This document shows positions 27,920 to 32,469 of a stretch of DNA of 55,815 bases, one piece after another. Both the position numbers and the translations under genes were made by a program. Origin of the DNA: a virus. Its lineage: Duplodnaviria; Caudoviricetes. The DNA is taken from the IMG/VR virus record IMGVR_UViG_3300033983_000012, positions 1 to 55,815 of that record; one strand, written 5' to 3'. The notes under the pieces are model-generated. The model was given only the letters and a program-made list of their open reading frames with translations, ran no database searches and was not told the DNA's origin. How positions within the stretch are numbered: position 1 is the stretch's first letter; the number at the start of each line of letters is the position of its first letter.

Positions 27920-28795
27920 CTATTCCTCTTCGAACTCCCCACGTTCGTTCAGCCGGTACCAAACGCCGGCCTTCAGTTTGCCGTCTGTCCCGTCTCCACA
28001 CCCAACCTCACGGCAACGCATCTCTGCACGTTGCGCGGCATCGTTCCACCAAGCGAGAGCAACGCAGCCCCACTCACCAGCTTTGGCCCGCGATCTGAGC
28101 CCGGCACAGACAGCGGGGCTGCAAGCCCCGGAAGAAGCGGCGCTCGACCTGTCGCCGGAAGAAGCGGCGCTCGAACTGTAGCCGGAAGAAGCGGCGCTCG
28201 ACCTGTCGCCGGAAGAAGCGGCGCTCGAACTGTAGCCGGAAGAAGCGGCGCTCGAACTGTAGCCGGAAGAAGCGGCGCTCGACCTGTCGCCGGAAGAAGC
28301 GGCGCTCGACCTGTAGCCGGAAGAAGCGGCGCTCGAACTGTCGCCGGAAGAAGCGGCGCTCGACCTGTCGCCGGAAGAAGCGGCGCTCCCTTCGGCGTTG
28401 TGAACGATCCACGCCATCTGGCCGGCGAGAATGAAGTTGGTAGCCTTTTGCCAATCGCCTGGCTTAGTCACGCATCGGATCGTGGCTTTGCGGGTCTTTT
28501 CTTTATCGCCGTCGATGGTGACGTGTACGACGTCCTTCGGGGCGCAGCCAAGCACCAGCCAGATGCCTTCCCAAATGGGAGCTTTTCCGCCTCCGATGCC
28601 GATCCCCCATGCCCACCCGTGCAAGCCCCCGCCGCAACGGCTGGCCGGATCCCAATCGGGTGCAGTAACTTCGGCCCCTATCTCAAGCGGGTACTTGAAG
28701 CCACCGTAAGAGGTGCCATCGGCGTTGACGCACTTGAGGAGTAACACCTCTGCGCCAGTGTGTGTCCACTGCCATGATGGAATCTTCTTGGGCAT
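27920..28795 (-). CDS. Phage protein with SSAASSGxx nonapeptide repeats
   Basis: N-terminal GFKYP...PDWDP..RCGGGLHGW domain, repeat tract, C-terminal LKAGVWYRLNERGEFEE; a common phage architecture. Confidence 0.88.
   Translation of the reverse strand: MPKKIPSWQWTHTGAEVLLLKCVNADGTSYGGFKYPLEIGAEVTAPDWDPASRCGGGLHGWAWGIGIGGGKAPIWEGIWLVLGCAPKDVVHVTIDGDKEKTRKATIRCVTKPGDWQKATNFILAGQMAWIVHNAEGSAASSGDRSSAASSGDSSSAASSGYRSSAASSGDRSSAASSGYSSSAASSGYSSSAASSGDRSSAASSGYSSSAASSGDRSSAASSGACSPAVCAGLRSRAKAGEWGCVALAWWNDAAQRAEMRCREVGCGDGTDGKLKAGVWYRLNERGEFEEE
28128..28388. repeat. 27-bp tandem repeat, 9 full units plus 18 bp
   Basis: Unit CCGGAAGAAGCGGCGCTCGA(A/C)CTGT(A/C)G; coding, with only two variable positions. 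Confidence 0.97.
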
Positions 28796-28812: not shown

Positions 28813-29469
28813 CTATTGCACCGGCTCCGGCCCGGTCGCCTTCCGCCGCTGATGCGTGCCACCATCCGCTTCTCGCGCGCTGGCCAGCGGCGGTTCCTTG
28901 GCTTTCGCCGGTGCCTTCTTGGTGCACGGCTGGCCGCTCGCGTGGACCGTGTCGTCGCCCTTCATGAATGGCACGCTATTGGCGCAATCCACGCAGTTCT
29001 TCTCGCCGTCCCTGTCGTCCAGCGGCAGATTCTGCTGGTCGGTGTAGGTGATCTTCAGAGCGCCGGCAGATTTGGTGGACGTCCCCACCAAGCGCATGTA
29101 GTTCTCGATGCGCGCGATTGCGCCCGGCTCAAGGACGCGCGCGATGAACCGGAGCTCGGTTCTTGTGGACTCGCCATCCTCGCCCTGGATGCGGAACAAC
29201 TGGAAGTCGGAGATGTCCGAGCACTCCATCTGGATTTCGTGTTGGCGCAGTTCCTTCTGGTTCGGCGTCAGGATCAGGCTGCGCGCGGTCAGTTCCCCGG
29301 TCAGCTTCGTGCTCTCAAAGCAATCCGGAATGGGCTCCCACTCCATGGCCTCGAGGACCGGCTTGCTCATCTCGCTCGTGAAGTGGATGCGCGCAAAACA
29401 GCCAGCTTCTTCCTTCTGTCTCAAATCGGCGTAGCGAATGAACGCGCACCGAAACGTGATGGTACTCAT
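28813..29469 (-). CDS. Hypothetical protein
   Basis: 218 aa, RBS GAGGGAG, ATGA coupling. Confidence 0.8.
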   Translation of the reverse strand: MSTITFRCAFIRYADLRQKEEAGCFARIHFTSEMSKPVLEAMEWEPIPDCFESTKLTGELTARSLILTPNQKELRQHEIQMECSDISDFQLFRIQGEDGESTRTELRFIARVLEPGAIARIENYMRLVGTSTKSAGALKITYTDQQNLPLDDRDGEKNCVDCANSVPFMKGDDTVHASGQPCTKKAPAKAKEPPLASAREADGGTHQRRKATGPEPVQ

Positions 29470-29840
29470 GCGTTTGTGTCTCCCTCTGAAATTCGTAGTT
29501 GGCCGGCGATCTCGGCGAGGTCGTGTCGATTCAACAGCACCGATATCCGGACAAGTTCATTTACTGCTTGGCGGCGGAACGGCCGCGCGGCGGCAACGCG
29601 GTCTTCGACAGATTCAGCCAGCCAGAAACCCGCATTCTTTCCCCGGCTGGACCCGATAGGATTCCTGTGGACTAAGATCAGGCGGTTGATGCTGTCAAGC
29701 ACGGCGCGCCGCCGGAGTCCCGTGCGCACGCAGATGATGGACAGCGCCACTGGCCTCGCGCGGCGGTGGGCCTGGATAACACCGAGCACGCGGGCATCGG
29801 CGTCCGTCAAACGAGAGTCGAAGAGAGGAAGCGCGTTCAC
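29466..29840 (-). CDS. Winged-helix DNA-binding protein
   Basis: TGLRRRAVLDSINRL...PIGSSRG..GFWLAES motif. Confidence 0.7.
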   Translation of the reverse strand: MNALPLFDSRLTDADARVLGVIQAHRRARPVALSIICVRTGLRRRAVLDSINRLILVHRNPIGSSRGKNAGFWLAESVEDRVAAARPFRRQAVNELVRISVLLNRHDLAEIAGQLRISEGDTNA

Positions 29841-30562
29841 CGGCAGATCCTCCCATCGGTCACCTCGCGGTTCATTAGCCTATGGGTGTGACTCAGTGAA
29901 ACGCCAAAGGCTTTCCCTGTCTGGCTTAGAGAGTGGCATTGCGCGCGGAATTCTTTCATTGCGGAGATAGTATCGCCGGAAATCACTGGCTTTCCGCGCC
30001 AAAACGATGGTCTCCATAGCCGTATCTTGGCGATGTGTTCCGCTGTGAGCGTTTGCCCCTTTTTGCGCCTACTGATCGCCAGGCAGTGTTGAGGAGAAAA
30101 GATTCGCCCTTTTAGTTTTGCGCTCTTCTTCGCACGGGCTTCCGGCGTGTTCATATGGGCTGTACCGCGCCGTTTGGCTATCATGCTCATCTTTTTCCTG
30201 GTTACCGCCGTTCTTGGGTATCTGAGCTTTTCTCGCGCCTCGCCTACAGGAACCCCGCCCAGGCCTCCTTTCGTGCTGTTGTAGCCGTTGCGTGAATCTG
30301 TTGAATCAAGAAGGATGATCCATATTCGTTCGAGGTTGTCCAGTTCAGTCTCAGGAATATCCGCGGCAAGCAGAGCGACTTCAAAAGCCTCAACGCCATA
30401 TTTCCGTATCGCCCTCGACAGAATGTGGCAACGTCGCCGCGTGACTGCATCGCAAACATGCTGTTTCCAGCGAAGGTCCACAGGTCCGACCGTCCGGCCA
30501 ACGTATACCTTGTCATTGGTCGTATTGCGAATCAGGTAGACCGCTCCTGGCTTCATCTGCAT
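29837..30562 (-). CDS. Free-standing GIY-YIG homing endonuclease with NUMOD3-like repeats
   Basis: AVYLIRNTTNDKVYVGRT...RWKQH...AIRKYG..F...LE..WI...GYNSTKGG; basic repeats; C-terminal HTH; visibly lower GC than flanks. Confidence 0.93.
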   Translation of the reverse strand: MQMKPGAVYLIRNTTNDKVYVGRTVGPVDLRWKQHVCDAVTRRRCHILSRAIRKYGVEAFEVALLAADIPETELDNLERIWIILLDSTDSRNGYNSTKGGLGGVPVGEAREKLRYPRTAVTRKKMSMIAKRRGTAHMNTPEARAKKSAKLKGRIFSPQHCLAISRRKKGQTLTAEHIAKIRLWRPSFWRGKPVISGDTISAMKEFRAQCHSLSQTGKAFGVSLSHTHRLMNREVTDGRICR

Positions 30563-31278
30563 ATGCGACCCTCTGTGATGATGTCGAGGAACCAAAACTT
30601 CTCGACCTTCTTCAGATCGATTTCGTCAGGGCACCGAAAGATGAAATCGCGGACGTCGTCACGCCGAATCCACCAGGCGTTTCCGCCCTGCTGTGGTGTT
30701 CGGTCCTGCTCTCGGCGCTCCGCTTTGAGGGCGCCAGATGCGATCCAGCGGGTGACCTTGTGGTCGTCGATGCCGAAGGCCTCAGCCAGTTGGCGGCCGG
30801 AGTATCCATCGAGCGTCTGCTTGATCCGCTCGCGCTTCATCTTGAGATGCACGGCCGTAGGAGTTCTGTGGAACCCGGCATTCCGCAGTGCGACCACCAT
30901 GTACCTGTCGCTGTGGTGCGCATTGGAGTGCAGAATCCGTTCCTCATCAGAGGTCCATGGTTCGTTCTCAGATGCGCGCGAAAGCCCCAGCTTCTGGGCC
31001 CGCTTCTTGACTGCCCAATGCGGCCAACCGATCCGCGCGGCGCAGGTCTTGATCGCCCGCCGGCTGTTGAACTCCCAGAAGCGCTCGTAGGCTTGGCGGA
31101 TTAGTTCGTCCGTTGCCAGCGTGGGCACATACTTGGCTGGCTTGCCGCGATGCCGTGGCCGGCAGACATCGCACCAACGCGCCCACGGCCGCACGAGCGG
31201 AGTGCCGCAATCGCCACAGAAATGGAGAGCTGCCATGGGCGGAGCCGCCGTGCTCAAGCTCTGCGCTAGGCTACTCAC
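30553..31278 (-). CDS. Zn-finger + HTH putative transcription factor
   Basis: CGDCG...CDVC; VKKRAQKLGL...PWTSDEERIL; LAEAFGIDDHKVTRWIASGALKA; GTG 31278 with GGAGG RBS. Confidence 0.8.
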   Translation of the reverse strand: MSSLAQSLSTAAPPMAALHFCGDCGTPLVRPWARWCDVCRPRHRGKPAKYVPTLATDELIRQAYERFWEFNSRRAIKTCAARIGWPHWAVKKRAQKLGLSRASENEPWTSDEERILHSNAHHSDRYMVVALRNAGFHRTPTAVHLKMKRERIKQTLDGYSGRQLAEAFGIDDHKVTRWIASGALKAERREQDRTPQQGGNAWWIRRDDVRDFIFRCPDEIDLKKVEKFWFLDIITEGRICR

Positions 31279-32469
31279 TGGCAGCCTCCGCGAAGCTCGG
31301 CGTCGGACGTGCGGTGGAAAAGGTTCCCCTGCGGCTTCAGGCAGTATGGACTGAACCAGATCACCTCGCGCCGCGGCGCCTTGTTGCTGTATCCCCAGGG
31401 AGCGCGCCAGTGGTCTTCCGTCCATGCCGCCGGCATCTGATGCTCATCCTCCAAGCCACAGAGCGCAATACGAAGTCGGGGATTGTTTCCGTTCTTAATT
31501 GCCCATGCCCGGACTTCCGCCGCCACGTCATCCTCGATTGAATAGAGCCGGTTGTCGCGGATCGCGTGGGAGTAGGGATGGTCCAGGAGCACTCCAGTGA
31601 GTTGGCCGCCGCCGAGCTTCCATGTGCAACTCGGGGTGACGATGCGGGACCAGTCGCCGCAGCAGACGCGCACGCGCCTGAGGCGCGACGCGAGAGCCTC
31701 CATCCATTCTGTGATGGCGGAATTCTGGGCGCCGCGCTGGTTGCTGCGGGTCATGATCGGAAGCTTTCGATGAACGCCGGTCGACCCGTTGCCACTCAGG
31801 TTCGGGCGCTTCGCATGGATTCCATTGCCCGCATCTCTGATGTGCGGACGGTGCTGCCAGTCGGGATTCTCGGATGCTCGCCGGCGCCGCGGCGCTTTTA
31901 CGTTGCAGACGCCTCGAGCGCCGCGATTCAGCACGGGGCGCTTGTTCTTGCCGTCGAGGTTCCCGGCCCAGGCCGACGCGGAATGGACTCCCATTTCGCC
32001 GTTGAGGTGAATGCTGGCGTTCAGCCCGCGGGGCGCCCGGCCGCCTTGGCCCCTCCCGACCCACTCGGGCCGAGAGCACCAGCCGGCACCGATCCATTGT
32101 GAGATGCCCCACACCCACCAGCCCGCGATCTTGGCGTCGTAGAACTCCGCATCCGCCAGCATCTTCTCGCGGAAGTTCGGCTGTTCGCAGAGCCAATGAT
32201 GTCTCGCCTGCAGGTCCGCCTCATTCACTGGCCAATCTGCGTATTCAGCCACCTGGTCCGGCGCGGCCGTCACCGACCGCCAGAAATTGCTCAAGTAGAC
32301 GTCCCTGTCATTGACCGTTTCAATCCGCGGCTCGTGTGGCCGCGCCAGCAGCACAGCCAGGCTGCCGGCGAAGGGTTCAATGTAATTGCCCACATCGCCC
32401 AGGCGGCTCCAGACCAGCTCCGCCGCGCGTGATTTACCGCCGAAACCAAGGAAAGGGTGCTTTCAACAC
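31275..32469 (-). pseudogene. Dam-like N6-adenine methyltransferase with a +1 frameshift near the start
   Basis: LKAPFPWF / GGKSRAA...YIEPFAGSLAVLL...ETVND. An extra base at TTT-C (32445-32442) breaks the frame; catalytic motif reads DHPY instead of DPPY. Confidence 0.8.

Follow-up and report, generated by a model that had tools for sequence, protein, structure and literature searches.

Free-standing homing nucleases of phages are usually described as intergenic or gene-splitting. In fungal mitochondria, the available part of PMC3630166 describes mobile open reading frames (mORFs) with C-terminal replacement in atp6 of Allomyces macrogynus, in atp6, atp9, cox2 and nad3 of Glomus sp., in atp9 of Rhizopus oryzae and in cox2 of Mortierella verticillata; the insertion consists of a foreign C-terminal piece and an endonuclease open reading frame (ORF), and downstream of it the native C-terminal piece is kept. 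For T4-like phages, the accessible text of a review (PMC2988022) reports that the 5' ends of seg and mob genes often overlap the upstream ORF, for example at nrdA/mobE (UAAUGA), which suggests translational coupling, and the available part of PMC11855218 describes an out-of-frame HNH insertion in an actinophage methylase gene (the 'ShiLan domain'). Here we analyze the virus record IMGVR_UViG_3300033983_000012 (Duplodnaviria; Caudoviricetes), a complete 55.8-kb record of 55,815 nt referred to below as the window, in which a free-standing GIY-YIG homing endonuclease gene has probably inserted within the conserved 3' end of a helix-turn-helix (HTH) gene, bringing a substitute end and reading into the native one. 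This arrangement would represent intron-less homing into a gene end with replacement of that end. The features on which the argument turns are listed below.

30553 to 31236, minus strand: HTH gene, 227 aa, with N-terminal CxxC pairs, an HTH_17-like domain and the conserved C-terminus ...VEKFWFLDIITEGRICR before the stop.
29837 to 30562, minus strand: GIY-YIG homing endonuclease ORF, 241 aa from ATG 30562, ending ...NREVTDGRICR and stop.
30553 to 30576, minus strand: copy 1, TEGRICR and stop, matched exactly in only 6 of 39 loci, all with GIY-YIG gene sequence.
30553 to 30594, minus strand: replacement HTH 3' end, WFLDIITEGRICR and stop, which moves with the nuclease gene.
29837 to 29864, minus strand: copy 2 plus 4 nt, the native HTH 3' end (V-TDGRICR and stop), now the last eight nuclease codons and stop.
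29865 to 30582, minus strand: 718 nt missing from empty alleles, which have two other letters instead (joint 29864/30583 in X3, X4 and X6).
29466 to 29840, minus strand: winged-helix-like gene, 124 aa, with its GTG start inside GTGA (PHROG 2113, E 6.8e-9).

The architecture can be read directly from the window. The HTH ORF ends ...FWFLDIITEGRICR with its stop at 30555-30553, and the nuclease ORF ends ...HRLMNREVTDGRICR with its stop at 29839-29837. An earlier note on this DNA had claimed that these TEGRICR and TDGRICR endings differ at 8 of 24 bases, synonymously except for E/D, and this was borne out by direct comparison of 30576-30553 with 29860-29837 (8 differences, 7 of them synonymous and one E/D). 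The note had also held that the upstream copy makes the ribosome-binding site and start of the nuclease, and that the downstream copy keeps a GTGA overlap with the next gene. Indeed, a Shine-Dalgarno-like GAGGG (30573-30569) lies in the upstream copy six bases ahead of ATG 30562, and a second candidate start, ATG 30556, shares an ATGA with the HTH stop. GTGA closes the downstream copy, and in it GTG 29840 is the start of the winged-helix gene (29840-29466), and the native remnant (29864-29837) contains both the GGGAGG of that gene and the GTGA stop/start overlap. Two other claims needed correction. A distinct end is supplied, as claimed, but it looks like a foreign allele (DII-TEGRICR vs DLV-TDGRICR) rather than a purely synonymous recoding: after the GAC codon, the substitute and native ends differ at 12 of 30 bases and share 7 of 10 residues, the three changes (LV to II and D to E; DIITEGRICR vs native DLVTDGRICR) being conservative. 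Similarly, the duplicated 24 nt exist, but the native piece measures 28 nt (29864-29837) and the travelling replacement about 42 nt (13 codons plus stop).

In six-frame translation, the 55.8-kb window contains GRICR at only two places. The HTH family has the conserved C-terminus ...EKFWFLDLxTxGxICx, the consensus of alignment A1, which comprises the window protein and 37 of 38 homologues, the fragment P0028 being omitted. HTH relatives were collected with a closer alignment, A2, the wide alignment A1 being too diverse as a query; the most conserved peptide picked from A2, KVEK[FW]WF, lies just ahead of the shared tail. The match of the two endings is not chance, because GRICR is rare in the window and the tail is the conserved C-terminus of the HTH family. 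Chance similarity and homology of a whole C-terminal domain were both considered and rejected, the similarity between the HTH protein and the nuclease being limited to the last 7-8 residues.

Both empty and occupied alleles of the site exist. Contigs of four public runs were aligned on window 29400-31300, with X3, X4 and X6 representing three studies of peat or pond metagenomes. In X3 (a short piece, depth 2), X4 (a contig of 8,971 nt) and X6 (a contig of 1,556 nt), the nuclease is absent and the HTH gene ends ...FLD-LV-TDGRICR and stop, followed directly by the window-type winged-helix gene. This is the empty allele predicted in the earlier note, with an end of the 29860-29837 type directly before the winged-helix gene. 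From the joint it follows that the native remnant is 28 nt long and that the insertion lies eight codons before the stop, in support of the roughly eight codons proposed in that note. Empty alleles with the 30576-30553 version, the opposite outcome named there, were not seen in the 39 loci in which tail types were compared (picked by eye among 95): every allele without GIY-YIG sequence is at least 3 mismatches away from copy 1, the nearest being L018 (3 mismatches) and L012 (5). The corresponding distances to copy 2 are 2 mismatches each for L087 and the second tail of L017 and 3 each for L012, L007 and L037. Over window 29400-29864, the empty X4 contig shows 6 differences, none of them listed in 29837-29864. 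Two further loci have no homing endonuclease gene (HEG). In L012, a contig of a Bryobacteraceae metagenome-assembled genome (MAG), the HTH protein is 93% identical and its stop overlaps a different winged-helix-like gene as GTGA; in L021, the HTH protein is 63% identical and its stop overlaps a 62%-identical homologue of the window winged-helix gene as ATGA.

The element has been transferred between diverged backgrounds. The HTH proteins of L002, L003, L004 (= L022) and L020 are 64-69% identical to that of the window, those of L002, L003 and L004 being put at 61-64% in a further comparison, and upstream of 30595 the DNA identity of the window to L002, L003 and L004 drops to about 65-70%. The same three loci match window 30594-30097 (about 500 nt) at all but one base, over a tract spanning the last 13 HTH codons plus stop and the first 155 nuclease codons, and a contig piece of X3 ends exactly at 30594. 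A presence/absence polymorphism at one site and a near-identical nuclease in diverged backgrounds were both seen. The L002-type HTH gene has as its best HEG-free relative a gene only 61% identical, so the left tract end in that background is placed by comparison with the window alone. An exact-pattern search for the empty allele of the L002 background returned occupied contigs only, and a pattern of the window tail plus the next gene had no match in IMG/VR. Single-protein IMG/VR scans with the HTH and winged-helix proteins found no relatives, and blastn (distant mode) on phage GenBank records gave only one unrelated 91-nt methylase match.

At the other end of the nuclease, the tail is of host origin. 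P0039 is an intact 241-aa nuclease, 99% identical to that of the window, with the tail TDGKICR, and in L002/L004 the nuclease tail resumes after an insertion sequence (IS) and ends ...NREVTDGKICR and stop. Between the window and L002, 6 of the last 24 nt of the nuclease are different (TDGRICR vs TDGKICR), and the preceding 54 nt are identical. Pieces of X3 cover 29837-30594 without the insertion sequence. Taken together, the comparisons support the view that the nuclease carries the upstream copy along between HTH genes about 65-70% alike in DNA, and they indicate that the downstream tail comes from the host, as the allele resident in each background, because it differs between backgrounds despite an identical nuclease body and equals its own empty allele. 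The tail motif was present in 1 of 100 GIY-YIG homologues (P0039, the same element) and in 1 of 52 homologues of an HNH nuclease from L017, described below, where the one hit is the query's own cluster; the shared tail is thus not a feature of either nuclease family.

Other nucleases occupy the same site. In L017, whose HTH protein is 89% identical, a 170-aa HNH_3 gene (E 6.8e-12) has a start that overlaps the HTH stop as TAATG; it ends ...RRVTR-DLVTDGRICR and stop, and behind it lies what remains of the winged-helix gene start. The two 33-nt copies in this locus differ at 9 of 33 bases, all synonymous, with the A/T-ending codon always in the upstream copy, and relatives of this HNH typically end ...IVRRKTWKHV. 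L018 carries a different HNH_3 gene (E 1.2e-6); its start is an ATG within the HTH end, and it shows no tail duplication. Over about 715 nt, L017 and L018 have the same HTH gene sequence; only the last ~45 nt and the nuclease behind them diverge, so that each nuclease comes with a gene end of its own. All three elements have tracts that start within a few bases of each other, equivalent to window 30594-30598. No GIY-YIG or HNH family (E up to 1e-4) was detected in 67 downstream ORFs of more distant loci; these were scanned at 67 of 82 reference loci, 15 being omitted as already characterised (10) or apparent duplicates (5).

The presence of two or three different nucleases in one interval would also be expected if a tandem duplication or slippage of the gene end came first and the nucleases landed later between the copies, neither bringing copy 1 nor capturing copy 2. 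Furthermore, only 4 of 42 nt distinguish the replacement ends of the GIY-YIG and the L018 HNH, as might result if cassettes had been exchanged between flanks already in place. However, no locus was found with two copies and no nuclease between them, second tails being confined to the window, L002, L004/L022 and L017 (95 loci and the window), and backgrounds about 65-70% identical share the same copy 1, copy 2 being variable. In addition, the right junctions of the GIY-YIG and L017 HNH elements lie at least 5 nt apart (after GAC-CT vs before GAC). We therefore consider a prior duplication very unlikely.

The in-frame tail of both independent cases, the GIY-YIG and the L017 HNH, raises another explanation, namely that the shared tail is a functional peptide, such as a docking motif, which the nucleases need, and no by-product of insertion; that the tail is the most conserved end of the HTH family would agree with this. 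Yet in each host the tail DNA is that of the resident allele and does not travel with the nuclease, and the L018 HNH occupies the same site without it. Since an in-frame event has a chance of 1 in 3, two such events are weak evidence, and a required peptide seems highly improbable.

Insertion of the GIY-YIG gene into the HTH gene end can be pictured as follows. The mobile unit would comprise about 730 nt (window 30594-29865), led by its own version of the last 13 HTH codons plus stop. The host HTH protein would stay full length because the unit brings these codons and the stop, and the substitute end would double as the ribosome-binding site and start of the nuclease. The nuclease ORF, lacking a stop of its own, runs in frame through eight native codons to the native stop. 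In a mixed infection, by analogy with intron-less homing, the enzyme may cut HEG-less alleles at or near the conserved HTH end, and repair of the break would copy the unit from the occupied genome into the cut allele. The substitute end, 12 of 30 bases off the native target, might then shield the occupied allele from cutting. We infer the cleavage site, immunity via the substitute end and translational coupling. The duplication itself has a simple structural reason, because a gene placed between two overlapping genes must duplicate the overlap, and this is perhaps also a selective reason for the in-frame read-through.

A broader reading can be put forward only tentatively. At least three nucleases, from two families, might home to one common site made up of the last ~45 nt of the HTH gene and the overlapping start of the gene behind it, each with a recoded 'immunity' end, and in-frame read-through might have been selected for handing ribosomes to the downstream start. 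If true, this would provide selfish nucleases with a general entry route into overlapping, translationally coupled gene pairs of compact phage genomes without polar damage.

Several observations weigh against insertion of an active homing gene with capture of the native end. The closest HEG-free genome, L012, ends in a hybrid whose first 8 nt correspond to copy 1 and last 13 nt to copy 2; this may be an ancestral allele or the result of nuclease loss by recombination between the copies, and it fits either. The empty X4 allele is not the exact recipient, because upstream of the joint (30583-31289) it differs from the window at 82 positions over 707 nt (~88% identity). The L018 HNH has no duplicated tail, so an element at this site can do without running into the native end. 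A TnpB insertion sequence breaks the nuclease in L002, L004/L022, L003 and L020, with residues 156-216 missing, and in L019 the nuclease is cut to about 36 nt, so that part of the population carries dead copies. Moreover, the relatives are all metagenome contigs, some of them duplicated across two collections (L004 = L022, L002 = L100).

Given that IS-disrupted and truncated copies are common and that the region has many mosaic breakpoints (the winged-helix gene of L012 is unrelated to that of the window, within flanks 86-90% identical), the nuclease might be a dead relic that now spreads only as mosaic phages undergo ordinary homologous recombination; the arrangement would then be a neutral scar. 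We regard this as unlikely: both the window copy and P0039 have their full length and their catalytic residues, and one difference per ~500 nt across backgrounds about 65-70% identical argues for recent, efficient transfer. In addition, the sharp tract ends at the same codons in three elements fit break-initiated repair. Insertion of a homing gene into the HTH gene end therefore remains our preferred explanation.

The genes can be typed to different degrees. The nuclease carries a GIY-YIG domain at about 30547-30302, with Pfam PF01541 above the cut-off (37.1 bits vs 22.6, E 4e-9; 38.9 bits in a second scan), and matches PHROG 314 'homing endonuclease' (E 2e-30). The 241-aa ORF also aligns with 1mk0, the catalytic domain of I-TevI (E 2.6e-7). 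The catalytic residues of GIY-YIG enzymes are the Tyr of GIY and YIG, an Arg, a Glu and an Asn. In the alignment to 1mk0 and 1ln0, VYL and VYVG are present, an R and an E are aligned and NGYN is kept; the query R and E align with residues differing between the I-TevI mutant structures 1ln0 and 1mk0, which we take to be R27 and E75. The enzyme thus looks intact. As candidates for a separate DNA-binding module, its C-terminus shows a weak Sigma70_r4 match (E 0.092, residues 210-232) and a 43-aa similarity, shared tail included, to the C-terminal HTH of the L017 HNH (pairwise E 2e-4). The GC content of the nuclease body (29861-30552) is 53.9%, vs 62.8% in the window and 61-62% in neighbouring genes, a foreign composition. 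The HTH protein is typed only weakly (HTH_17 23.2 bits, below the cut-off of 27; PHROG 323, E 2.6e-6). No Rfam family was found in 29300-31400 (E up to 1), and thus no intron is indicated at the site; the Pfam scan returned no intein family, and the host ORF stops before the nuclease body, which speaks against an intein. A promoter/terminator scan of 29300-31400 found nothing exceeding shuffles.

All genes named here lie on the minus strand, in the order methylase-like ORF (32393-31275), HTH gene (31236-30553), 241-aa ORF (30562-29837), winged-helix-like gene (29840-29466) and 218-aa gene (29469-28813). The first of these encodes 372 aa, of which only the first ~50 residues match a D12 N6-adenine methyltransferase (Pfam E 0.0018, below cut-off; PHROG 56, E 5.2e-10). 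Two further HNH_3 genes of the window (32948-32463 and 24422-23985) overlap their neighbours in ATGA style, neither with a duplicated host tail, and the former lies between a C5-methyltransferase gene and the methylase-like ORF. The winged-helix-like genes at window 29477-29840 and L012:3681-4096 are unrelated and share about the first 25 nt (MNALPLFD vs MSTLPMFE); since the genes flanking them are 86-90% identical, this suggests a swap of the winged-helix module bounded by the conserved junction that the nucleases use. Within a 291-aa ORF (28795-27920), a 27-nt tandem repeat of 9.7 copies at 28128-28388 is translated as a Ser/Ala-rich repeat; copies are far fewer in the L012 homologue, as judged by multiple 45-nt blast matches to one L012 site.

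The insertion sequence is a TnpB/IS605-OrfB element at L002:3433-4595 (also in L004/L022, L003 and L020) with a 375-aa ORF (OrfB_IS605, E 1.3e-20; Cas12f1-like TNB, E 1.4e-21), and runs X4 and X6 show its boundaries again, as loose ends at window positions 30097 and 29914. At L019:453-2436, the replacement end and ~36 nt of GIY-YIG are followed by an unrelated 638-aa C5 DNA methylase gene (Pfam E 5.8e-40), a switch that is either a rearranged allele or an assembly chimera. The host of the phage is probably an acidobacterium of peat soils, since relatives of the HTH gene (L012-L016) lie on MAG contigs labelled Bryobacteraceae, Bryobacterales and Solibacteraceae and the runs holding the stretch (X1-X20) are mostly peat metagenomes.

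A full-text literature search for phage C-terminal duplication by homing nucleases returned fungal mitochondrial matches only, and further searches of titles and abstracts yielded no phage case. The available parts of the Sclerotinia mitogenome and ICP1 nuclease papers hold no comparable arrangement, and the word stem 'duplicat' occurs 0 times in the accessible text of the T4 review (PMC2988022). The natural alleles, whether empty, occupied, decayed or with other nucleases, show the origin of sharp mosaic boundaries and chimeric gene ends. Annotation pipelines would assign the 8-residue tail to the nuclease and overlook the foreign end of the HTH gene. The locus is also a small, clean system suited to asking whether recoded ends give self-immunity.

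With the free-standing nucleases of T4-like phages, the element shares an I-TevI-like catalytic domain. The seg and mob genes likewise are GIY-YIG or HNH ORFs between or beside conserved genes and spread with co-conversion of flanks, but the cases in the available part of PMC2988022 are intergenic or split a gene into two polypeptides (mobE in nrdA of Aeh1, mobA in gene 60). In contrast, the HTH gene of the window has not been split, nor is it intact: it has a replaced end, and its old end forms the C-terminus of the nuclease. The ShiLan case resembles the locus in that a homing nuclease resides in a phage protein-coding gene without intron or intein and with an unorthodox frame overlap. There, however, the insertion is translated in frame within the host protein and the nuclease in another frame (PMC11855218, available part), whereas the HTH gene of the window terminates before the nuclease and the insertion is not read through.

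The closest match is provided by the mORFs, and the gene hybrids in the available part of PMC3630166 agree with the earlier note, which had named fungal mitochondria as the main known setting of terminal replacement. In these hybrids, an endonuclease ORF (LAGLIDADG or GIY-YIG) lies within the 3' part of the host gene, it travels together with a foreign C-terminal piece that is in phase with the core of the gene, and the downstream native piece is closer to the alleles of relatives than the inserted piece is. Correspondingly, in the window a substitute in-phase end lies ahead of the nuclease, and the native piece is nearer to the empty alleles. The host genome differs, being that of a double-stranded DNA phage of a probable acidobacterial host and not an organelle, and 13 codons are supplied and 8 kept here, in comparison with the ~50-240 nt inserted in Glomus (PMC3630166, same part). 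Unlike in mORFs, the phage HTH gene stops at the overlap with the nuclease start, and the nuclease, not the host gene, reads the native remnant. This remnant still holds the start signals of the overlapping downstream gene, and two nuclease families use the same phage site. We therefore regard the layout, which is not proven absent from print, as a new form of a known kind of arrangement, the phage counterpart of C-terminal replacement by fungal mitochondrial mORFs, and the locus connects phage biology with that phenomenon. Besides intergenic and gene-splitting insertion, it offers a third solution, in which a nuclease gene enters a conserved gene end, supplies a substitute and recycles the old end and the start signals of the next gene as its own C-terminus; the element of the window works like an mORF but stands outside the mitochondrial set.

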